From positions 300 through 64,299 of the forward strand of contig VMFZ01000004.1 of NCBI GenBank assembly GCA_007376285.1: 64,000 nt of DNA. Reading direction: 5' to 3'. The position numbers and the translations under genes are program-made. Positions 1,640 through 35,364 of this stretch are shown piece after piece. The notes under the pieces are model-generated. The model worked only from the letters and a program-made list of their open reading frames with translations. It was not told the DNA's origin and did not search any database. Every line of letters begins with the position of its first letter. The stretch's first letter is position 1. This stretch comes from Parcubacteria group bacterium Gr01-1014_17 (GTDB lineage: Bacteria; Patescibacteriota; Minisyncoccia; Phycocordibacterales; UBA10002).

Positions 1640-3835
1640 ATGGCGCACAAATTGTTGATTGTTGAATCGCCTGCAAAGGCGAAAACCATCGGGAAATATC
1701 TCGGCGCGGATTTTGTTGTCAAAGCATCTATCGGTCATGTGCGGGACTTACCGAAGTCCAGTAAAAACGCCGTGGACATCGCGGCGGGTTTCGTACCGCA
1801 TTACGAAATCGTCAAGAAAAAAGAAACGGTAGTTGCAGAAATAACCGAAGCGGCGAAAAAAGCAAGCGAAGTGATTCTCGCGACCGACCCCGACCGCGAA
1901 GGCGAAGCAATCGCGTGGCACATTGCCGAAATCCTTAAAGAAAAACTCGGGAAAGCACGACCGCCCATAGCGCGCGCCGTCTACCACGAAATTACCAAAG
2001 AAGCGATTGAAGACGCGCTCGCGCATCCGCGCGCGGTAGACCAAAACCTGCGCAAAGCGCAAGAGGCGCGGCGCGTGTTGGACCGTCTTGTGGGCTATGA
2101 CCTTTCCGGGCTCATTTGGAAAAAAATCCGCTACGGGCTTTCCGCGGGCCGCGTGCAATCCCCCGCGCTCCGCATCCTTGCGGAGCGCGAGCGCGAGATT
2201 CTGGCGTTTGTACCAGAGACCTTCTGGGTGATTACCGCAGATACGGAAACGCCGTCTCGTGCAAAGCTCTTGCTCACCTGCTCAGAAGAACCGCGCGACA
2301 ATAAACTGGTAGAGAAAATTCTTGAGGAAGGAAAAAAGGGCGCGTGGAGCATTACGGATGTATCCGAGACCAAAACAAAACGCGCGCCGAAGCCGCCCTT
2401 TATTACTTCAACGCTCCAACAAGCCGCATCAACGCGCCTCGGTTTTTCTCCAAAGCGGACGATGCTCCTTGCGCAAAAGCTCTACGAAGCGGGACAGATT
2501 ACCTATATGCGCACCGACTCCACCAACCTCGCCGAGTCGGCGCGCGCGCAAATTGCGGGCGTGATTAGCAAAGAGTTTGGAAAAGAACTTGTTGCGCTTC
2601 GCACCTACAGCGGCAAAGTGAAGAACGCACAAGAGGCGCACGAGGCGATTCGCCCGACTCATTTCTCGCAAAAAAACGCGGGCGCAACGCCCGAGCAGAA
2701 GAAACTCTACGACCTTATCTGGAAGCGCACCGTTGCCTCGCAAATGCCTGACGCGGAAATGCTTCGTACCAAAATTACGGCAAATATTGCCGAGAAAAAC
2801 ATTCCGGATTTTGCGGCAAATGGCGTACGACTCTTATCGGAAGGGTGGCTCTGTGCCGATCCGGAGGCACACGGCGAGGATGTGGAATTACCCAAAGCAT
2901 CAGTTGGCGATGCACTCGCGCTGCTCGCGCTCAACACACAAGAAAAACAGACCGAACCGCCTTCGCGTTACAGCGAAGCGGGGCTGGTAAAAGAACTTGA
3001 GAAGCGCGGCATCGGGCGACCATCCACCTACGCCTCTATTATGGAGACATTAGTTGAACGCGAATATGTAACGCGCGAAAATCGTTCTCTCAAACCCACC
3101 GACACCGGTATGGTGGTCAGCGGCTTTTTGGAAAAACATTTCGCTTCTTACATCAACGATTCGTTCACCGCAGAAATGGAAGACAAACTAGACGACATTG
3201 CAAACGGAAGCCGCGAATATGAAAAGACCTTGAAAGAGTTCTATGTTCCTTTTCACAAAGATGTGAAGTCAAAAGAAAAACTTGATAAAGCAACAACACT
3301 TGGCAACGCGCCGAAAGAATTCAAATGTCCGCCTTGCGGAGGGCCGATGGTTTGGAAGCTCGGGCGCAGCGGAAAGTTTCTTTCCTGCGAACGCTTTCCA
3401 GATTGCACTGGAGCGCTCACCGCAGAGGGGCAGGAAATAAAACCAGACGAGCCGATCGGAAAAGACACGAACACCGGCGAGGATATCTTTCTACTGAACG
3501 GCCGATTCGGCTTTTATGTGCAGGTAGGAAAGTTAGAAAAAGGCGCGAAAAAAAAGGATGCCCCTAAACTCCGGCGCGCGAGCGTTCCGCGCTCGTTTGA
3601 TGTGTCCAAACTCACGGTTGCGGATGCGCTCAAGTTCCTTTCGTTGCCCCGCGTACTAGGCACACACCTGGCGACCGGCAAAGACATTAGTGCAAACATA
3701 GGCCGATTCGGTCCATATATCGTGCACGATGGCGACTTCCGTTCGCTCAAACCGCCCGACAACCCGTACGACATCGCCCTCCCCCGCGCGCTTGAGATTC
3801 TGAAAGAAGAAAAAAAGACCAGAGGCAAAAAATAA
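1640..3835 (+). CDS. topA: DNA topoisomerase I
   Basis: N-terminus MAHKLLIVESPAKAKTIGKYLG (Toprim); C-terminal zinc ribbons CPPCGG...CERFPDC; 731 aa. Confidence 0.95.
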   Translation: MAHKLLIVESPAKAKTIGKYLGADFVVKASIGHVRDLPKSSKNAVDIAAGFVPHYEIVKKKETVVAEITEAAKKASEVILATDPDREGEAIAWHIAEILKEKLGKARPPIARAVYHEITKEAIEDALAHPRAVDQNLRKAQEARRVLDRLVGYDLSGLIWKKIRYGLSAGRVQSPALRILAEREREILAFVPETFWVITADTETPSRAKLLLTCSEEPRDNKLVEKILEEGKKGAWSITDVSETKTKRAPKPPFITSTLQQAASTRLGFSPKRTMLLAQKLYEAGQITYMRTDSTNLAESARAQIAGVISKEFGKELVALRTYSGKVKNAQEAHEAIRPTHFSQKNAGATPEQKKLYDLIWKRTVASQMPDAEMLRTKITANIAEKNIPDFAANGVRLLSEGWLCADPEAHGEDVELPKASVGDALALLALNTQEKQTEPPSRYSEAGLVKELEKRGIGRPSTYASIMETLVEREYVTRENRSLKPTDTGMVVSGFLEKHFASYINDSFTAEMEDKLDDIANGSREYEKTLKEFYVPFHKDVKSKEKLDKATTLGNAPKEFKCPPCGGPMVWKLGRSGKFLSCERFPDCTGALTAEGQEIKPDEPIGKDTNTGEDIFLLNGRFGFYVQVGKLEKGAKKKDAPKLRRASVPRSFDVSKLTVADALKFLSLPRVLGTHLATGKDISANIGRFGPYIVHDGDFRSLKPPDNPYDIALPRALEILKEEKKTRGKK

Positions 3836-13817: not shown

Positions 13818-13884
13818 TAAATCCTAGCATTTTTTGACACATAAAAACAGCCCCGCTTCGCTCGGGCTTCGGCAGTTACAAGCC

Positions 13885-13929
13885 CCCGCATTTCTTTATA
13901 CCAGTGTTTTGCAAAACACTAGTATAGAT
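13885..13929. repeat. repeat A copy 1 (palindrome ACCAGTGTTTTGCAAAACACTAGT) at the 3' end of the ArsR-like gene
   Basis: near-identical to 14201..14247; it encodes the C-terminal ILVFCKTLV of the regulator. Confidence 0.7.
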
Positions 13930-14168
13930 TCACCGCGGGCGGTGAGCCGGTGAAGTACGCTCGGACCAGAGTTCCGTTTCATAATAAGGCCTGCAATCGC
14001 CAATTTCCGAATGTGGTCGGAAGCATTCTCGTACCCAAGTTTAAGCCGCTTGGTAATAGCGGCAACCGAGAGTTCAGGTTCTTTGTGCAGTAATTCAAGA
14101 ATCTTAATCCGATTGTGATTTGCAAAGCCGCGCACCACGCGCTCCGCTTTCCTATATTCAAAAGCCAT
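13896..14168 (-). CDS. ArsR-family HTH transcriptional regulator (paralog 1)
   Basis: ANHNRIKILELL ... AITKRLKLGYENASDHIRKLAIAGLI; start taken at MAFEYRK. Confidence 0.7.
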   Translation of the reverse strand: MAFEYRKAERVVRGFANHNRIKILELLHKEPELSVAAITKRLKLGYENASDHIRKLAIAGLIMKRNSGPSVLHRLTARGESILVFCKTLV

Positions 14169-14200
14169 ATCTATTATTATACTACCACACATCCCACGTC

Positions 14201-14247
14201 CCCGCATTTCTTTATACTAGTGTTTTGCAAAACACTAGCATAGACAT
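14201..14247. repeat. repeat A copy 2, upstream operator candidate of the ArsR-like gene
   Basis: cccgcatttctttatactagtgttttgcaaaacactagcatagac. Confidence 0.7.
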
Positions 14248-14919: not shown

Positions 14920-15061
14920 TCATATTTTATTTCGGCCCGCACTTTTCACCCGACAAAAACAGCCATGCTTTGCTGAATCTACGCAGGACAAGCCGCCCAT
15001 CCGCCCGCTTTGAAACCCTCCAAAACTCTATGGAACCCTTCGCCCGAAGGGTCCCCTACAA

Positions 15062-15092
15062 AACATTCTCACTTTCTTAAGAATGTGAGAAT
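15062..15092. repeat. repeat B copy 1 (30-bp palindrome ACATTCTCACTTTCTTAAGAATGTGAGAATGT)
   Basis: three copies in the window (15062, 15682, 15990); this one overlaps the tag 3' end. Confidence 0.75.
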
Positions 15093-15670
15093 GTTTTTGT
15101 AATGTCGTTTTTACGGAAACACCGCTCCATATGGTCGTTCACCATCCCCACTGCCTGCATATGTGCATATAGCGTTGTAGGACCGAGAAATCGAAAACCG
15201 CGCGCTTTGAGGTCGTGCGCCCAGCGAATTGCCTCGTCGCTCGTCTGACGATAATCTTTGATTGTTTTAATTCTGTACTGAATTGGCGTACCGCCGACAA
15301 AACCCCACATATATTTTGAAAAATTACTAAATTCTTTCTGTATCTTCAGAAATCTTTTTGCATTGTTAATTGTCGCTTCTATTTTCGCGCGGTTGCGCAC
15401 AATACCGGCGTCGCCAAGAAGCCGCACCACATCTCGCTTTTCAAACGCTGCAATTTTCTTTGGGGAAAAATCCGCGAACATTTTTCTGAAATGCTCGCGC
15501 TTATGCAAAATCGTGCGCCAACTTAACCCCGCTTGAAAGATTTCCAATACCAAGAATTCAAAAATCTTTCGGTCTTCATAAAGCGGAACGCCCCATTCCG
15601 TGTCGTGATACTCCTTCATACGCGCATCATTCTCATCTACCCACGCGCATCGTTTTCTTTTTTCTTCCAT
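15077..15670 (-). CDS. tag: DNA-3-methyladenine glycosylase I
   Basis: EYHDTEWGVPLYEDRKIFEFLVLEIFQAGLSWRTIL is typical of Tag. Confidence 0.85.
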   Translation of the reverse strand: MEEKRKRCAWVDENDARMKEYHDTEWGVPLYEDRKIFEFLVLEIFQAGLSWRTILHKREHFRKMFADFSPKKIAAFEKRDVVRLLGDAGIVRNRAKIEATINNAKRFLKIQKEFSNFSKYMWGFVGGTPIQYRIKTIKDYRQTSDEAIRWAHDLKARGFRFLGPTTLYAHMQAVGMVNDHMERCFRKNDITKTFSHS

Positions 15671-15681
15671 ACAAGTACGAA

Positions 15682-15712
15682 ACATTCTCACATTCTTAAG
15701 AATGTGAGAATG
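15682..15712. repeat. repeat B copy 2
   Basis: aacattctcacattcttaagaatgtgagaatgtt; encodes the KTFSHS C-terminus of ArsR paralog 2. Confidence 0.75.
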
Positions 15713-15971
15713 TTTTTATGAGCTGTATCATACGGTGGCCGTACGGAGAAAGCGAGTGTGCCACTTCCCTGCCGCGATATTTCTTATCAACAAGTCCTGC
15801 ATACACGAGGCGGCGAGTATGTTCAGCAATCGTTTTCAGATTGCAGTCCAAATGCTCTGCTATGCCATCAAGCGAGACGCCCTCTGAAGTATGTATTAAG
15901 AAAAGTATCTGAAGGCGTCGATGGTTCGCGACTCCCTTAAAATGCCGTTCCAATTGTTTAGGTGTTTTCAT
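15696..15971 (-). CDS. ArsR-family HTH transcriptional regulator (paralog 2)
   Basis: ANHRRLQILFLI ... IAEHLDCNLKTIAEHTRRLVYAGLV; homologous to paralog 1. Confidence 0.7.
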   Translation of the reverse strand: MKTPKQLERHFKGVANHRRLQILFLIHTSEGVSLDGIAEHLDCNLKTIAEHTRRLVYAGLVDKKYRGREVAHSLSPYGHRMIQLIKTFSHS

Positions 15972-15989
15972 TCTTATTCATTATACTAG

Positions 15990-16020
15990 CACATTCTCAC
16001 TTTCTTAAGAAAGTGAGAAT
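15990..16020. repeat. repeat B copy 3, operator/promoter candidate between ArsR paralog 2 and typA
   Basis: acattctcactttcttaagaaagtgagaatgt. Confidence 0.7.
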
Positions 16021-16112
16021 GTTGTTATGCGGATATTCAATGTTTGCGTTCTTTTGCATTTTATCGTATTATGAATGTGAAATCGTGGCCGCGAGGCCAT
16101 TTTCATTTGTAT

Positions 16113-24492: not shown

Positions 24493-24571
24493 TTGGTACA
24501 AGTATTTTGCAAAATACTGAAATACACTATCTCTGGCGACCGCTAGAGATAATGTAGGTATTCGTCTAACT

Positions 24572-26411: not shown

Positions 26412-26430
26412 TTTATCCGCCAAACCAAAC

Positions 26431-26463
26431 ACACCCGATGTCTAAATTGCAGACATCGGGTGT
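26431..26463. repeat. P element copy (inverted loop orientation)
   Basis: acacccgatgtctaaattgcagacatcgggtgt. Confidence 0.8.
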
Positions 26464-26474
26464 TAATTATATTG

Positions 26475-29082: not shown

Positions 29083-29537
29083 GTGGCGATTTCTTAATCG
29101 TAAATCTCACTAAATGCACGACGCTCGGAACGCGGGCGCGTTTTCTGAATATAAAAAATAAAACGGTAGGTAGAGCGTTCTCCATATCTCTCGTCTTTGC
29201 AGGAGCGGCACAAATGCGCCGCTTGAACCGCGCATACCGCAAAAAATCTTACACGCCGAATGTTCTCTCGTTCCGTCTTGCGAAAAATGAAGGGGAAATC
29301 TTTATATGCCCATATGTTGCCGCGCGCGAAGCCCGCGCAGAAGGGGTTGCGCTCTCGGCACGGGTCGCATACCTCGTTATCCACGGTTTACTCCATTTGA
29401 AAGGATACGCGCATGGCGCTACAATGATTAAGTCAGAGGAGCGGCTGTGCAAATCTTTTAAATTGCCGCAACCTGCACATTCTAAATCGTGGCGCAAAAA
29501 ATCTCCTGCGGAATTGATATCGGCACCGACCGCGTAA
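29079..29537 (+). CDS. ybeY: rRNA maturation endoribonuclease YbeY
   Basis: HGLLHLKGYAH metal-binding motif. Confidence 0.8.
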   Translation: MSGDFLIVNLTKCTTLGTRARFLNIKNKTVGRAFSISLVFAGAAQMRRLNRAYRKKSYTPNVLSFRLAKNEGEIFICPYVAAREARAEGVALSARVAYLVIHGLLHLKGYAHGATMIKSEERLCKSFKLPQPAHSKSWRKKSPAELISAPTA

Positions 29538-30658
29538 AAGTGCTCATTATGGAGCAGGGCGTTCCTGTGCCGCATGTTTTGGGTTGCGGCTCTGCGGAAA
29601 GCGGAGGCGTACATCAAGGGTACATAGAGCATCCTGAAGAAACCGCGAATGCCGTGCGCGAGGCACTTTCTGTAGCGGCAAAAGCCGCGGGGGTAATGCC
29701 GCGGCGCGCCACAGTCGGAGCTGGTGGCATTGGGCTATCTTCAGTCACCGCAAACGGCGCTATTGTGGTTTCGCGCGCAGATGCTGAAATTACCGAACTT
29801 GACGCAAGCAAAGCAGTTGAGACGAGCCGCATTTCAATTCCGACATCTCTTCTTCAAAATAGGCGCATAATCCATACGACACCGCTCCAATACAAAGTTG
29901 ATGGAAAATCCGTGCCTACCTCCCCAGTCGGTTTTAAGGGCGCGAAGCTTGAAGTGCGTACATTTTTCGTTACCTGCATGGAACAACATCTTGAGAATCT
30001 TTTTGAAGCAGTGGAAACCGCGGGTATTGCCATAGAAGATGTGGTTGCAACACCGCTCGCGGCAAGTACCGCAACAATAACCCGCGCGCAAAAAGCCGCA
30101 GGAGTCGTGCTTGCGAACATCGGCTCAGAAACCGTGTCTATCGCAGTGTTTGAAAACGGATTGCCTGTTTCAATTGAAGTGTTTCCAGTAGGAAGCGTTA
30201 ATGTAACAAACGACATTGCGCTCGGGCTACGCATTCCTTTGGAAGAAGCCGAAAGCGTGAAGCGCGGGGCGATTATCGGCGCTTCGTTTCCGCAGAAAAA
30301 ACTTGATGAGATTATTGCGGCGCGGCTCACAGATATTTTTGAACTGATTGAAGCGCATCTTAAAAAAATGGGGCGAAGCGGTCTTCTCCCCGCAGGGGTC
30401 GTGCTCACCGGCGGCGGCTCGGCGCTTGCAACAATTGATGACCTTGCAAAAGCGGCGCTTAGGTTACCTGCGCGCATTGCGTCTGCAATTACCGGAGAAA
30501 GCGGAAAGAGCCAAATAAAAGACGCGAGTTGGTCCGTTGCCTACGGGCTTGCAGCAATGGGGCTCCAAGACGCGGCGCGCGGGCTTCCTTTGGGCATTGA
30601 AACCGCGCGCCGCGCCAAGCACACAGTGGTGGGGTGGTTTAAGCAATTTTTGCCGTAA
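29489..30658 (+). CDS. ftsA: cell division protein FtsA
   Basis: actin-like ISCGIDIGTDRVKVLIME; 389 aa. Confidence 0.9.
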   Translation: MAQKISCGIDIGTDRVKVLIMEQGVPVPHVLGCGSAESGGVHQGYIEHPEETANAVREALSVAAKAAGVMPRRATVGAGGIGLSSVTANGAIVVSRADAEITELDASKAVETSRISIPTSLLQNRRIIHTTPLQYKVDGKSVPTSPVGFKGAKLEVRTFFVTCMEQHLENLFEAVETAGIAIEDVVATPLAASTATITRAQKAAGVVLANIGSETVSIAVFENGLPVSIEVFPVGSVNVTNDIALGLRIPLEEAESVKRGAIIGASFPQKKLDEIIAARLTDIFELIEAHLKKMGRSGLLPAGVVLTGGGSALATIDDLAKAALRLPARIASAITGESGKSQIKDASWSVAYGLAAMGLQDAARGLPLGIETARRAKHTVVGWFKQFLP

Positions 30659-30838
30659 GAGCCGCTCGCATAGCTCCCGTGTCCGAACACGCATACCCGC
30701 CGCCAGCGCGGCGGGTTGCTCTGCTCGGCTCGGCGTTGTCAAGAGCCCTCGCTTCGCTCGGGTCGTTGACAAACCGTGCCGCCTCGCCTCCGCAAGGTCG
30801 CGGACACGGGACTATGCTCGCTTTTGTTTTCATTTCCG
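30659..30838. repeat. MITE-like element R copy 1 (~180 bp with ~22-bp terminal inverted repeats GCTCGCATAGCTCCCGTGTCCG / CGGACACGGGACTATGCTCGC)
   Basis: starts at the ftsA stop; ~95% identical to 33041..33228. Confidence 0.75.
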
Positions 30839-30873
30839 GCACCAGATGTCTGCAATTTAGACATCTGGTGCCT
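30839..30873. repeat. P element copy
   Basis: ggcaccagatgtctgcaatttagacatctggtgcc. Confidence 0.8.
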
Positions 30874-31026
30874 CGGGAGACACCCTGCCCGCTCGGCTCC
30901 TCGCCCGCCCGTACCGAATGGTACATTCGGGCGGGCCGTTCCGCAAAAGCACATTCCTCACTCTGTTTTTTTCACCATCTGTACATACAGACATTTTGCA
31001 AAATGTTTGTATAAAACAGGCAAAAG

Positions 31027-31058
31027 AAAACCCGCGACCGTTTGACGGTCGCGGGTAG
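31027..31058 (-). terminator. hairpin cccgcgaccg-tttga-cggtcgcggg downstream of the minus-strand gene 31076..31732
   Basis: 10-bp GC stem; A-tract on the plus strand equals a U-tract on the minus strand. Confidence 0.6.
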
Positions 31059-31075
31059 GATTGAATGTGAAGAAA

Positions 31076-31732
31076 TCATGCTTTCCGCTTCTGCTCGTAG
31101 CCGGGTTCTTCCCAAACCTCAACATAATATTCCTCTCCATCTCCCCGGACAACCAAGAATGGATCCCTCTGCACTTTCTCCACGATCATCTCGTCGATGA
31201 AAAAAGTTGCACCGCACACGCGCTGGTGAATCTCTTTGGCGGTAGCCAATGCGAATCCGGGTACAGGACCGCTATACTCCTTGAGTGGAGTAATTTTCCA
31301 GAACGCCCTGTCTTTAGTAGACATGGAGCACACGAGAATGATGAACAGAACGACAAACATGGCGACGAAACCGGAAGCACAAACTGAACTAATCGTCTTG
31401 ACCAAGCCAGCATCATTTGAGACAAAGATTATTGAACTTGCAACCGCCAAAACGATAGATACTCCAAAAAACTTAAACAGCGGAATTAATCTGTTGTCGT
31501 CCCCGAATTTCTTTATCTGCTCTTCTTTGTATTTCCGCACCGAATCGTGACTGAATGGAGTGATACCGGCAATACGCAATGCACATGCAAGCGACCCCTC
31601 CTTGCAGAGTTTTTCTTTTTGAGGATGGTGGTAGCCCAATTGTTCGTGGGCATAGTCCAAGACATCCTGTGTCATGGCTTCTTCTGGATCAATTTTTGGC
31701 AAAGAACGCCGTTCGAGTGTGGTAGTATTCAT
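31076..31732 (-). CDS. hypothetical membrane protein inserted between ftsA and ftsZ on the opposite strand
   Basis: 218 aa with two hydrophobic helices in the middle; no recognised domain. Confidence 0.5.
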   Translation of the reverse strand: MNTTTLERRSLPKIDPEEAMTQDVLDYAHEQLGYHHPQKEKLCKEGSLACALRIAGITPFSHDSVRKYKEEQIKKFGDDNRLIPLFKFFGVSIVLAVASSIIFVSNDAGLVKTISSVCASGFVAMFVVLFIILVCSMSTKDRAFWKITPLKEYSGPVPGFALATAKEIHQRVCGATFFIDEMIVEKVQRDPFLVVRGDGEEYYVEVWEEPGYEQKRKA

Positions 31733-31884
31733 CTTTCTCCCGTCCTTTCTTTATTTGTTGTTATTCGTTGGAACTTGCAGTGTAGGTAAAGACACACATC
31801 TTTATCTGGGTCAGAGTATAGCACACCCCATTTTTCCTGTCAACTCTTTTTTTTAAGAAAGGGTGATATGATGCCCGTACATTT

Positions 31885-33039
31885 ATGCCTTTAATTACAC
31901 CGGATGTAGAAGCGTTTGCGCGGATAAAAGTGTTCGGTATCGGCGGCTCGGGCAAAAATGCCTTGAACCATATGATCAACTCCAAGGTCAAAGGAGTTGA
32001 GTTTGTCGCAATCAACACAGACGCGCAAGACCTGCATAACACGCTCGCCAAAAAGAAAATCCATATTGGAAAGAATGTTACGCGCGGGTTGGGCGCCGGT
32101 ATGAATCCTGAAGTGGGCAAGCGCGCCGTTGAAGAAACGAAAGAAGAAATACAGGAAGCGACGAAAGGCGCGGATATGGTGTTCATTGCTGGCGGGCTCG
32201 GCGGCGGCACTTTCAGCGGCGCCGCGCCCATGGTAGCCAAAACCGCGAAAGAACTCGGTGCGCTTACTGTCGCGGTAACGACTAAGCCGTTCTTTTTTGA
32301 GGGCTCGCAGAGAATGAAAATTGCGGAGCAGTGGCTTGAAGAACTCCGTAAGAGCGTTGACGCAATTATTATCATTCCGAATGACCGCTTGCTCGCTTCC
32401 ATCACCAAAGACACGACCGCCAAAGCCGCGTTCGGCACCTGCGACGAAGTGCTCCGGCAAGCCGTGGAAGGAATTTCTGACTTGATTACTACGCCGGGTA
32501 TTATCAACTTGGACTTTGCAGATATTCGTGCGATTTTGGAAAATGCTGGCTCGGCGCTTATGGGCATAGGGAGCGCAACCGGCGACAAACGCGCCGAGGA
32601 AGCCGCGAAAGCCGCCATCAATTCCCCGCTTCTTGAAGTGTCCATCAACGGCGCGAAGGGCGTGCTCTTCTCTATTGCGGGCGGCGACGACCTCACGATG
32701 TTTGAAATACAAGAGGCCGCAAAGATTATTACGGAATCAATAGACCCGAATGCCAAAGTGATTTTCGGCACCATCCGCGATGAAAAGCTAAAGAAAGGCG
32801 AAATTAAAATTACAGTCATTGCATCTGGCTTTCCAGAAAGCGCACTGCCGCGCAAATCGCTTTTTACCGGACTTATGAATAGCGGCGCAGACGACGACAA
32901 GCGCGGGAAGCAGAACACGGTTTCTGCATCTGCTTCCATTATTACCAAAGAAACAAAGTCGGACGAGAAAAAAGGGTCCGCTAGCGAAGACGACGACTGG
33001 GGTTCTGTGCCTGCGTTTCTAAGACGGGCGAAGAAGTAA
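31885..33039 (+). CDS. ftsZ: cell division protein FtsZ
   Basis: GGGTGSG-like GLGGGTFSGAAP, NTDAQDL, tubulin signature. Confidence 0.95.
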   Translation: MPLITPDVEAFARIKVFGIGGSGKNALNHMINSKVKGVEFVAINTDAQDLHNTLAKKKIHIGKNVTRGLGAGMNPEVGKRAVEETKEEIQEATKGADMVFIAGGLGGGTFSGAAPMVAKTAKELGALTVAVTTKPFFFEGSQRMKIAEQWLEELRKSVDAIIIIPNDRLLASITKDTTAKAAFGTCDEVLRQAVEGISDLITTPGIINLDFADIRAILENAGSALMGIGSATGDKRAEEAAKAAINSPLLEVSINGAKGVLFSIAGGDDLTMFEIQEAAKIITESIDPNAKVIFGTIRDEKLKKGEIKITVIASGFPESALPRKSLFTGLMNSGADDDKRGKQNTVSASASIITKETKSDEKKGSASEDDDWGSVPAFLRRAKK

Positions 33040-33040
33040 A

Positions 33041-33228
33041 GGGCGCTCGCATAGCTCCCGTGTCCGAACACGCATACCCGCCGCCAGCGCGGCGAGTTGC
33101 TCTGCTCGGCTCGGCGTTGTCAAGAGCCCTCGTCCGCCTAAGGTGGACTCGGGTCGTTGACAAACCGTGCCGCCTCGCCTCCGCAAGGTCGCGGACACGG
33201 GACTATGCTCGCTTGCGTTTTTCTTTCT
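33041..33228. repeat. MITE-like element R copy 2
   Basis: same TIRs; carries a 16-bp extra apical segment relative to copy 1. Confidence 0.75.
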
Positions 33229-33263
33229 GGCACCAGATGTCTGCAATTTAGACATCTGGTGCC
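33229..33263. repeat. P element copy
   Basis: ggcaccagatgtctgcaatttagacatctggtgcc. Confidence 0.8.
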
Positions 33264-33334
33264 TCTCTATCCAAGTATTTTGCAAAATATTTGTAGGGAC
33301 TAATTCGTGAGAATTAGAGAATAGACAAAGAAAA

Positions 33335-33366
33335 ACCCGCGACCATATTTCAGATCGCGGGTTTTA
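33335..33366 (-). terminator. hairpin acccgcga...tcgcgggt downstream of the minus-strand gene 33391..34038
   Basis: 8-bp GC stem plus T-tract. Confidence 0.5.
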
Positions 33367-33390
33367 GTTAGATGGTATTTCCAAATCCAC

Positions 33391-34038
33391 CTAACATGAC
33401 ACCAGTCCAGCTTCGCGTAGGGTGCGATCGAGGAACTGCGCTTTCACTAACACCTGCCGTGCGAGGTCTCGTCGGCTGCTATAATACATCGGTGCACTCA
33501 GCAAGAGTTGGAACGAAGCGAAGCCGAGACCGCCGAGGATGCCCCACTTCAGGAAAGTGAGGAACATTCCCAGATTCATTCCCAGATTGAAGACCGCTTT
33601 GTTGATCTGTGTCTCGCTGTAGTAGCCGATCGCGAAGATCACCATGGCAGCGATCACCGGAATCAAGAACGTCATGCCGAACTGGAACTTAGGAAACCTC
33701 ACGGGTGAGGCCATGTGTATGTAGCTCGGAATGCGGCCCATGATAATCCAGTCGTCGAGCGACAGGACATTCTTGAGGTGTTCTGTGGTGCTCTCCGCTT
33801 CGCGCTGATACTTCTTCGAGCAACACGCATTGTTATGGAAGTACGGGAAACGAATGCGTAGGTTCTCCTTCACGAGCGGCTCCACAACTTGTTCGAAGGT
33901 GTAGCGTCCAAGGAGTACTTCGTTGACGACAGGGGCCTTTTGCTTCCATATTTCGACGAGATTGAAGAGGGATTGCCTTCTGTCCACATATTCGGGGAGC
34001 GATACTGCTTCACGGACGGATGAGTAGAATTCACTCAT
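33391..34038 (-). CDS. hypothetical membrane protein
   Basis: 215 aa; C-terminal half has 3 hydrophobic helices. Confidence 0.45.
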   Translation of the reverse strand: MSEFYSSVREAVSLPEYVDRRQSLFNLVEIWKQKAPVVNEVLLGRYTFEQVVEPLVKENLRIRFPYFHNNACCSKKYQREAESTTEHLKNVLSLDDWIIMGRIPSYIHMASPVRFPKFQFGMTFLIPVIAAMVIFAIGYYSETQINKAVFNLGMNLGMFLTFLKWGILGGLGFASFQLLLSAPMYYSSRRDLARQVLVKAQFLDRTLREAGLVSC

Positions 34039-34314
34039 AATTTTCCTTTCGTTATTGATTTTTTTACCAAAGAACTTTCACTACTAGCCTAGCATAAGAT
34101 ATATATCTTGTCAAGTTGTTGTACTCGTCCGTAACATACGGCCCTATAAAGCCCTATTTCAATAGGCGGTGGGAAAACGAAAACACCGCCCTTGCGGGCG
34201 GTGTTTTCTATCCAACTGACGAAAGCACAGAATGCCATCGCCGGACTTGGTATGCAGTGAGTATAGCAAACGCTTATTTTGTGTCAAGTTGTTCTGTGGA
34301 TAACACTCTCGTAC

Positions 34315-34383
34315 AGCCGGTAGAGGGATTCGAACCCTCGTCAGTCGGAATACCAAGTCCGACAACGGAACCATCCTACCGGC
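34315..34383 (-). tRNA. tRNA-like gene, possibly tRNA-Thr (GGU), with a shortened D-arm
   Basis: 7-bp acceptor GCCGGUA/UACCGGC, canonical T-arm GAGGG-UUCGAAU-CCCUC, anticodon loop UUGGUAU. Only 69 nt, with D region GGAUGGUUCC. Its 5' end abuts the TTG start of trxB. Confidence 0.4.
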
Positions 34384-35364
34384 TTGAGTAAAAGTATATC
34401 ATATTCATTTTTTGATTTGCTTTCATGTTATACTTTTTCTATGACTTACGACTTAGCTATTATTGGCGGAGGACCGGCTGGCGTGGCGGCAGGAGTGTAT
34501 GCGGCGCGGAAGAAATTGAAGACGGTTTTTATTACGAAGGACTGGGGCGGGCAGAGTAGCGTTTCTACTGGTATTGAAAACTGGATAGGAACGGTGCGGT
34601 TGGACGGCGCGGAACTGGCGAAAAATCTGGAAGTGCACCTGCGCGCGTACATAGCCGATACGGTTACGATACAAGACGGCGAATGGGTACAGCATGTCGC
34701 GCAAAATGGCGCGGATTTTCGCATTACAACCGACGCGGGTGCATATGACGCGCGCGCGGTCCTTGTTGCAACAGGGAGCGCGCGCCGAAAACTGCAAGCA
34801 AAAGGCGCGGACCGGCTAGAGCATAAAGGAATCACCTACTGCGCGTCTTGCGACGGACCTGTGTTTGCGGGGAAAAATGTGGCAGTTATAGGCGGCGGCA
34901 ATGCGGCGTTTGAAACCGCGGCACAGCTCCTCGCCTACTGCCCGACGGTTACTATTATTCATCGACGCGATTCATTTAAGGCAGATGAGATTATTGTTGA
35001 GCGCGTGCTTGCGAACCCAAAAACACGCGTCATTAAAAATGCAGACATTACTGAAGTGAAAGGCGAAAAGTTCGTTCAAGAAATTATATACAAAGACAAA
35101 ACAACTGGCGTGGAACAATCGCTCGCAGTGGAAGGCGTCTTTGTAGAAATCGGCTCAACCCCCGCGACGGATTTCGTTGCGGAGATTGTGAAGCGAAACC
35201 ACTATAATCAAATTATTACTGACTCGAAGACGCAACGCGCGAGTATAGAGGGCGTTTGGGCAGCCGGTGACTGCACCGACGGCTTATACCACCAAAACAA
35301 CATTGCCGCGGGCGACGCCGTCAAAGCGCTGGAGGATGTTTATTTATACTTGCATGGGAAATAA
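34384..35364 (+). CDS. trxB: thioredoxin-disulfide reductase-like FAD/NAD(P) oxidoreductase
   Basis: AIIGGGPAGVAAGVYAARK FAD site, redox CASC, NAD site VAVIGGGNAAFE; TTG start. Confidence 0.8.
   Translation: MSKSISYSFFDLLSCYTFSMTYDLAIIGGGPAGVAAGVYAARKKLKTVFITKDWGGQSSVSTGIENWIGTVRLDGAELAKNLEVHLRAYIADTVTIQDGEWVQHVAQNGADFRITTDAGAYDARAVLVATGSARRKLQAKGADRLEHKGITYCASCDGPVFAGKNVAVIGGGNAAFETAAQLLAYCPTVTIIHRRDSFKADEIIVERVLANPKTRVIKNADITEVKGEKFVQEIIYKDKTTGVEQSLAVEGVFVEIGSTPATDFVAEIVKRNHYNQIITDSKTQRASIEGVWAAGDCTDGLYHQNNIAAGDAVKALEDVYLYLHGK

Follow-up and report, generated by a model that had tools for sequence, protein, structure and literature searches.

A structured repeat just past the stop codons of ftsA, ftsZ and htrA in genomes of the Parcubacteria group

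We analyzed a stretch of 64,000 nt from the metagenome-assembled genome (MAG) of Parcubacteria group bacterium Gr01-1014_17 (contig VMFZ01000004.1, forward-strand positions 300 to 64,299), which we will call the window. The window contains the division genes ftsA and ftsZ, followed by a trxB-like gene for a pyridine-nucleotide disulphide oxidoreductase. Its FtsZ places the organism in the Patescibacteria, in the Parcubacteria group, near Taylorbacteria. Just past the stop codon of ftsA, and again just past the stop codon of ftsZ, lies a copy of a GC-rich repeat that we will call the element, and a third copy follows htrA in a sister genome. The best explanation is that the element is a previously undescribed, low-copy, non-coding repeat of ~160 nt plus a T-rich tail, from a narrow clade of Paceibacteria near Taylorbacteria, in the Parcubacteria group. 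Coordinates (Table 1) are positions in the window, unless they follow the label of a contig from a relative, such as L066 or L086.

The cores of copies 1 and 2 are identical at 145 of 146 positions if the tip of the long arm is excluded. Both begin 5 nt past the stop codon of the upstream gene (the ftsA stop ends at 30658 and the ftsZ stop at 33039). At the tip, copy 2 has 15 nt in place of the 5 nt of copy 1, for a net gain of 10 nt. Each core is followed by a T-rich spacer (TTTTGTTTTCATTTCC for copy 1, TTGCGTTTTTCTTTCT for copy 2) and then by the P palindrome, GGCACCAGATGTCT-GCAATTT-AGACATCTGGTGCC, which along with a trailing TC is identical in the two places (37/37). The whole duplicated unit is about 214-223 nt. 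The differences are concentrated in the spacer: 5 of its 16 positions differ (11 are identical), whereas the core has a single mismatch in 146 positions and the P palindrome has none in 37 (Fisher p = 1e-5). This clustering implies that the structured parts are either under purifying selection or homogenised. The element is 67-68% GC, versus 48% across the window, and one 19-mer from the core occurs exactly twice in the window (0.01 occurrences expected). The ends form a terminal inverted repeat with 11 perfect base pairs (TCCCGTGTCCG/CGGACACGGGA). If one bulge is allowed, it extends to 16-17 bp, and two G-C pairs lie outside it. The window contains this terminal repeat nowhere else.

An initial annotation of this DNA had described the two near-identical repeats after ftsA and ftsZ, with a palindrome after each, and both observations hold. 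It had also described an opposite-strand membrane protein of 218 amino acids between ftsA and ftsZ, with its own terminator, and we confirmed this open reading frame (ORF), its two hydrophobic helices, and the terminator. Several details needed correction, however: the copies were said to begin at the stop codons themselves, and the tip of copy 2 was taken for an extra segment of 16 bp instead of a replacement. Terminal inverted repeats were claimed at ~22 bp, and the repeat does exist, but not as a clean 22 bp.

The element folds into a four-way junction: the terminal inverted repeat forms the closing stem (P1), which encloses a 12-bp hairpin, the long hairpin with the variable tip, and a 6-bp hairpin. 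For both window copies and on both strands, the fold is far more stable than expected from shuffled sequences (z = -8.0 to -10.2, with none of 200 shuffles as good), and the suggestion of a structured element in the initial annotation is supported. For a 222-nt region that includes copy 1, its flanks, and the P palindrome, z was -8.0 on the plus strand and -9.9 on the minus strand. Immediately after the closing stem, the plus strand reads TTTTGTTT, TTGCGTTT or TTTTTTTC, with at least 5 of 8 bases being T in all three copies, and the spacer as a whole is T-rich in each of the three (the two window copies and the one on L086). Covariation is weak, with just three sequences to compare: three pairs change on both sides, two of them in the tip, which cannot be aligned, and this is equaled by 12 of 500 shuffles. 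P1 contains one compensatory change, from C-G to U-A. No Rfam family matched any part of the window at its gathering score, and over the element there was nothing meaningful on either strand at E up to 10.

The third copy turned up in a protein search. Copy 1 contains a spurious minus-strand ORF of 95 amino acids (see below), and with this ORF as the query, we found one other spurious ORF, P0137, on contig L086 of GCA_964406265.1. In the core, the L086 copy is 93% identical to the window copies (134-135 of 145 positions). It begins 2 nt past the intact stop codon of htrA (the C-terminus, LEEFK, is conserved), in the same orientation to the upstream gene as the window copies, and this HtrA is 93% identical to the HtrA of the window's own MAG, which is encoded at locus G01um101417_88 on an 85-kb contig. 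After the L086 copy there is a T-run, TTTTTTTC, and then a different hairpin. Its long arm ends in yet another hairpin, which differs from those of both window copies. On its far side the L086 copy borders non-core DNA, namely an operon with a Dam-like methyltransferase, whose terminal gene is a 92-aa ORFan that is transcribed toward the element. The copy therefore lies between convergent genes, with ~270 bp between their stop codons. For comparison with the 93% identity of the element, coding DNA is 77-86% identical between the window and L066, from a comparably related genome. The identity of the element is above this range, although extending the comparison to L086 is an inference, because L086 and the window share no genes.

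The copy at htrA shows the element to be dispersed; a local duplication does not account for it, and the element is not specific to ftsA and ftsZ. The initial annotation had suggested that the element may regulate the division genes. This is not supported, given that the third copy follows htrA and that ftsA and ftsZ of close relatives lack the element. The initial annotation also allowed for a simple local duplication, with two copies and no inverted-repeat signature. The terminal inverted repeat, the copy at an unrelated locus, and the orthologous sites without the element in the relatives all speak against this.

The initial annotation had also proposed comparing the ftsA-ftsZ spacer across related genomes, and this was informative. 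Seven distinct relatives, with FtsZ 89-95% identical to ours, have a tight ftsA-ftsZ-trxB order, with 66-84 bp between ftsA and ftsZ (where both genes are on the contig) and 17-25 bp between ftsZ and trxB. None of the seven has the element at ftsA or ftsZ. Because the relatives have such tight spacers, we conclude that the window carries two lineage-specific insertions. Each insertion comprises the element, at the boundary closest to the housekeeping gene, and a different ORFan on the opposite strand. In other words, ftsZ and trxB are split as well, by a second ORFan (215 amino acids) that is unrelated to the 218-aa ORFan. The insertions are composite (element plus cargo), so the sites in the relatives are not clean empty sites for the element alone. 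We considered whether the insertions might, as complete units, be transposons bounded by terminal repeats. Neither has a partial or inverted copy of the element at its far end, and we dropped this idea for lack of matching ends.

Sister strains differ in what the ftsA/ftsZ spacer contains, which makes it a hot spot. In L080 and L081 it contains another minus-strand ORF, of 84 amino acids, and a similar module of a TTTTGCAAAA palindrome plus a terminator. In L082 it contains only the P palindrome, and in L066, L067, and L083 it contains nothing.

Table 1. Positions of the element, its neighbors, and associated features
Feature	Contig	Position	Strand	Details
ftsA	window	29489-30658	+	Pfam
ftsZ	window	31885-33039	+	Pfam
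trxB-like	window	34441-35364	+	Pfam, alignment with relatives
Element copy 1, core	window	30664-30821		158 nt, 68% GC; four-way junction (closing stem P1 and three hairpins)
Element copy 2, core	window	33045-33212		168 nt
Element copy 3	L086	3618-3777		same orientation to upstream gene as window copies
T-rich spacer, copy 1	window	30822-30837	+	16 nt, directly 3' of closing stem; terminator-like U-run on plus strand
T-rich spacer, copy 2	window	33213-33228	+	16 nt
P palindrome, copy 1	window	30838-30872		35 nt; 14-bp arms, 7-nt centre
P palindrome, copy 2	window	33229-33263		identical to 30838-30872
Duplicated unit, copy 1	window	~30661-30874
Duplicated unit, copy 2	window	~33043-33265
Insertion 1	window	30661-31834		~1.17 kb, replaces ftsA-ftsZ spacer of relatives
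Insertion 2	window	33041-34425		~1.38 kb, replaces ftsZ-trxB spacer of relatives
218-aa ORFan	window	31076-31732	-	G01um101417_242; two transmembrane (hydrophobic) helices
Intrinsic terminator, 218-aa ORFan	window	31056-31030	-	canonical
Sigma70-like promoter, 218-aa ORFan	window	31843-31815	-	11/12 consensus positions
215-aa ORFan	window	33391-34038	-	G01um101417_244
Intrinsic terminator, 215-aa ORFan	window	33365-33332	-	canonical
P palindrome sites	window	24457, 25995, 26430, 30838, 33229, 44338, 54828
P palindrome site	L066	2198-2229
P palindrome site	L082			in ftsA-ftsZ spacer
TTTTGCAAAA-centred palindrome	window	30985-31012		downstream of 218-aa ORFan
TTTTGCAAAA-centred palindrome	window	33272-33293		downstream of 215-aa ORFan

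In the deposited annotation, a hypothetical protein of 95 amino acids, G01um101417_241 (TSC84435.1), runs across copy 1 at 30639-30926 on the minus strand. The open frames differ among copy 1, copy 2, and the L086 copy, and in P0137 a 1-nt indel takes the ORF from one of the two window frames into the other. Because no reading frame is common to the three copies, the element is not coding. G01um101417_241 is spurious, because its frame is not conserved among the copies. The spurious ORF on the plus strand had no match among 1.84 billion protein representatives.

We searched widely for more copies. Among genome contigs, a pattern anchored on the inverted repeats matched 65 loci, all of which were chance matches in high-GC genomes. 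Among metagenome contigs, an 18-mer that is common to all three copies matched 57 loci, again all by chance. Four scans of viral sequences gave two chance hits and otherwise nothing, and blastn gave nothing in phages and one weak partial hit in plasmids, with nothing homologous. A covariance model built from the three copies found no further copies in 212 kb of related loci. From the 64-kb window, the source MAG contains at least two copies. In the literature that we searched, there was no description of this kind of repeat in the candidate phyla radiation.

Neither the 218-aa nor the 215-aa ORFan has a match in Pfam or PADLOC or a meaningful match in PHROGs. For the 218-aa ORFan, a sequence-profile search of PDB was empty, and its AlphaFold model (predicted local distance difference test, or pLDDT, of 74) had no match in PDB when searched with Foldseek. 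We rejected an origin of the two ORFans by segmental duplication, as paralogs, because the proteins are unrelated to each other. The 218-aa family has only 9 members. Its homologs (around 6001-6657 of L074/L075, and 6001-6657 of L079) are found in unrelated neighborhoods: either between rpoC and dnaG or beside genes for a large serine recombinase, SIR2-like, DUF87, and MmeI-like restriction-modification proteins. The family behaves as a mobile accessory gene. We also considered whether the element might be a 3' module of this gene family, but four homologs that we examined in other genomes did not have the element downstream, so we dropped this idea.

Insertion 2 also contains a tRNA-like sequence (34315-34383, minus strand; 33.9 bits for the Rfam tRNA family) that is absent from all of the relatives. 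ARAGORN reports it only at a lowered threshold. It has an 8-nt anticodon loop with a four-base anticodon, UGGU (Pro/Thr), and a stunted or degenerate D arm. An inverted partial copy of its anticodon arm lies at 34211-34253, within a putative minus-strand small RNA of ~85 nt (promoter at 34287-34260, matching 11/12 consensus positions; terminator at 34208-34179). The mechanical ORF for the trxB-like gene begins at a TTG at 34384; based on the alignment with relatives, the ATG at 34441 is likely to be the true start.

The P palindrome is a separate family. In the window we found 14 hits to its arms, at seven sites, versus 0.18 expected. The core and the asymmetric 7-nt centre are conserved, with compensatory changes in the stem, and most of the sites are just past stop codons, several with T-runs after them. 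It is probably a shared terminator or a protein-binding hairpin. The P palindromes of the two window copies share a unique GGCACC outer stem, which the L086 copy lacks. One of the sites is at 26412-26474, where the window has the P palindrome alone. At that location, after pth, the closest relative, L066, has a strain-specific ORF of 225 amino acids (2497-3174, minus strand), accompanied by a P palindrome and a TTTTGCAAAA module; the covariance model did not find the element in L066. By eye, the 225-aa protein resembles glycerophosphodiester phosphodiesterases, with no Pfam hit on record.

Variants of the TTTTGCAAAA-centred palindrome follow all four of the strain-specific ORFans that we have seen. 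Besides the two in Table 1, there are examples at 24495-24520, at L066 2437-2470, and at L080 72-103. Another two (13879-13928 and 14195-14244) bracket a small ArsR-like winged-helix ORF at 13929-14168 (minus strand), which we identified from its translation and not from Pfam. The TTTTGCAAAA palindromes may be operator sites or a module that is carried with the cargo. Another family of palindromes, ACATTCTCAC...GTGAGAATGT, occurs at 15057-15098, 15676-15717, and 15985-16026. These sites bracket a MarR/ArsR-like gene of 91 amino acids (15696-15971, minus strand) and a 3-methyladenine glycosylase gene (15077-15691, minus strand), and they look like operators. Finally, a 37-nt segment, AATCCACCCCCTTG.ATTCCCCCTCCTTT, is 92% identical between 59659-59694 of the window and 8154-8190 of L086, where it is just past the RNR gene. 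It may represent another small family of repeats or terminators.

What might the element do? All three copies begin 2-5 nt past the intact stop codon of a housekeeping gene (ftsA, ftsZ, or htrA), in the same relative orientation. Each copy is at a border with strain-specific DNA and separates convergent genes, with the adjoining cargo gene transcribed toward the element. Also, the host genome uses canonical terminators, with a stem and a U-run, for the ORFans. With less than even confidence, we tentatively read the element as a new structured repeat, akin to miniature inverted-repeat transposable elements (MITEs), ERIC, and Correia elements, that acts at 3' ends as a terminator or insulator, separating a housekeeping gene from convergent cargo acquired recently. 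If so, the element would form the 3' end of the upstream gene's transcript, and this RNA would fold into the four-way junction, with a GC-rich closing stem of ~17-21 pairs and the U-run directly after it. This fold would terminate and stabilise the upstream mRNA and would insulate it from the convergent cargo gene.

The element is at different loci in sister genomes, which suggests non-autonomous mobile or recombining behavior, and presence or absence combined with dispersal is the pattern expected of a mobile repeat. The initial annotation had suggested a mobile MITE, and the structured inverted repeat, the third locus, and the absence from relatives fit that description, while the lack of a target-site duplication, of a partner transposase among the ORFs that we screened, and of further copies in the collections searched does not.

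Several observations weigh against a terminator or insulator that spreads as a mobile repeat. Just three copies are known, each at its own locus, and they come from two sister genomes. The copies are not flanked by a target-site duplication: they are bordered by TAAGAGCC..TTTTG, TAAAGGGC..TTGCG, and TAATC..TTTTT. (GCTCGC is present at both ends of every copy and does not vary, which makes it part of the element and not a target duplication; L066 does not have it at the empty sites.) We checked 27 window ORFs and found no transposase, integrase, recombinase, or reverse transcriptase. In the L086 copy, three pairs in the inner closing stem are broken and the terminal repeat is partly degraded. 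The closing stem encloses ~115-125 nt and three hairpins, as compared to the 3-8-nt loop of an intrinsic terminator. Lastly, folding favors the minus strand. On that strand the consensus folds with 63 pairs at -91.1 kcal/mol, versus 56 pairs at -77.6 kcal/mol on the plus strand, and three independent transitions (alignment columns 50, 122, and 145) preserve pairing as G-U on the minus strand only, with A-C or C-A mismatches on the plus strand.

This strand asymmetry is among the arguments for a different reading, in which the minus strand encodes a structured small RNA or a processed RNA that is antisense to the ends of ftsA, ftsZ, and htrA. Such an RNA might act in trans, as an antisense RNA, or as the 3'-end element of a transcript from the cargo side. 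The minus strand folds better in every copy, and not just in the consensus: the minimum free energy of the core is -98.9 kcal/mol on the minus strand and -87.2 on the plus strand for copy 1, and -104.1 and -92.0 for copy 2. The internal mismatches are purine-purine on the minus strand, where purines also predominate in the GA/GA internal loop and at the GCGAAGC tip. The compensatory change in P1 would fit this reading as well, and so would the inter-genome identity of the core, which is above the neutral expectation for intergenic DNA (judging by the coding DNA of L066). On the other hand, the tip of copy 2 pairs better on the plus strand (as G-U) than on the minus strand (as A-C), and for three of three transitions to favor one strand has a p value of only ~0.125. 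We did not find a sigma70-like promoter upstream of the element on the minus strand in any of the three copies, nor a U-run after it on that strand in the two window copies. The strong terminators of the ORFans lie between the ORFans and the element, and no Rfam family matches. Furthermore, a single-copy RNA gene is normally found at one locus across sister strains, without a duplicate 2.4 kb away. The sequence evidence as to which strand is functional thus points both ways, with some support for a plus-strand terminator and some for a minus-strand RNA. We consider the minus-strand RNA to be possible but doubtful.

We also considered that the element might be a selfish or neutral repeat without a function, with the ftsA and ftsZ copies arising from one local duplication or gene conversion. 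Under this scenario, the position next to the stop codon reflects where insertions are tolerated in a compact genome: because the ancestral spacers are only 17-84 bp, any tolerated insertion would necessarily be near a stop codon. In the window, all 214 nt of the unit are common to both copies, down to a P palindrome whose GGCACC outer stem is missing from the L086 copy, which fits one local copying event, and the genome is full of other palindromic modules. However, the mismatches are uneven, with 5 of 16 in the spacer and 1 of 183 in the structured parts (p = 1e-5), which argues for constraint or homogenisation. Also, the L086 copy abuts the htrA stop codon by 2 nt despite a ~270-bp spacer, and it has the same orientation and a T-run. 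A repeat with no function at all seems unlikely to us.

Less probable still is that the element functions as DNA: a recombination site that folds when single-stranded, like attC or a transposon end, and that marks the junction where promoter-bearing ORFan cassettes were captured beside stop codons. All three copies sit precisely where a conserved gene gives way to strain-specific DNA. The cargoes are diverse (the 218-aa ORFan; the 215-aa ORFan with the tRNA-like sequence; and the Dam-like methyltransferase operon with the 92-aa ORFan), the two in the window are unrelated to each other, and the cargo in the ftsA/ftsZ spacer differs in sister strains. A variable tip on a conserved stem resembles the variable terminal structure of attC, and the difference in folding between the strands would suit a single-stranded DNA substrate. 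Yet the ends of the element lack RYYYAAC and GTTRRRY boxes, the ORFs that we checked do not include an integrase or recombinase, and neither insertion has a partner for the element at its far end. The ORFan at L066 2497-3174 was inserted without any element, and the cassettes are single and scattered instead of being in an array. We think it very improbable that the four-way junction is the site of an integron-independent gene-capture system of candidate-phyla-radiation bacteria, in which ORFan cassettes are inserted or exchanged after the stop codons of essential genes, even though such a system would explain the different cargo in the ftsA/ftsZ spacers of sister strains.

If the element is indeed a terminator or insulator of the 3' ends of housekeeping genes, then it represents a new family of structured extragenic repeats for the candidate phyla radiation. 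It would also imply that the core ftsA-ftsZ operon of a tiny genome tolerates strain-specific insertions of opposite-strand ORFans, given strong insulating structures, and the spurious protein G01um101417_241 would be removed from the annotation. At present, the value of the element is as a candidate terminator/insulator module or small RNA; it does not open a long-standing question.

How does the element compare to known systems? Two of these we dropped without a dedicated test. A template and variable repeat pair from a diversity-generating retroelement does not fit, as the differences between copies are not adenine-specific, the copies are non-coding, and no reverse transcriptase was seen; and the non-coding RNA of a retron would go with a reverse transcriptase, which is not among the 27 ORFs that we screened.

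Like the attC sites of integrons, the element is an imperfect palindrome that folds and whose terminal structure varies, and it lies at one edge of a small cargo gene of unknown function; as with integron cassettes, the cargo differs while the site is conserved. But the attC boxes R'' (RYYYAAC) and R' (GTTRRRY) are absent from its ends (GCTCGCATAG...CTATGCTCGC), and at ~160 nt it is longer than the usual attC (57-141 nt). Also unlike integrons, there is no IntI integrase among the window ORFs that we screened, and the cassettes, which have their own promoters and terminators, occur singly at scattered sites instead of in an array at an attI site.

The P palindrome is reminiscent of REP/BIME sequences: it has seven sites in 64 kb, just past stop codons, with compensatory changes in the stem. 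The 160-nt element itself is larger, branched, and low-copy, and we did not see a RAYT transposase. In all three copies, as in intrinsic terminators, a U-run comes directly after a GC-rich stem when the strand is read in the sense of the upstream gene. Unlike intrinsic terminators, the element is conserved in sequence as a repeat family, and a scan for consensus terminators does not call it. As for MITEs, the element has terminal inverted repeats, but strict membership fails on the target-site duplication and, with no further copies in any of the collections searched, is unproven.

Close parallels are two kinds of MITE-type structured repeats of bacteria that become part of mRNA ends, the Correia/NEMIS elements of Neisseria and the ERIC/IRU elements of enterobacteria. 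These are co-transcribed with flanking genes, and depending on their orientation, they can terminate, process, or stabilise the mRNA. They are single long hairpins with tens to hundreds of copies per genome, and Correia elements have a TA target duplication, whereas our element is a three-hairpin four-way junction with a hypervariable tip, three known copies, and no duplication. The element shares their size (~100-170 bp), their terminal inverted repeats that form a long closing stem, their extragenic location beside the ends of genes, and their presence/absence polymorphism between strains. Its placement is also different: every copy lies 2-5 nt past a stop codon, in one orientation.

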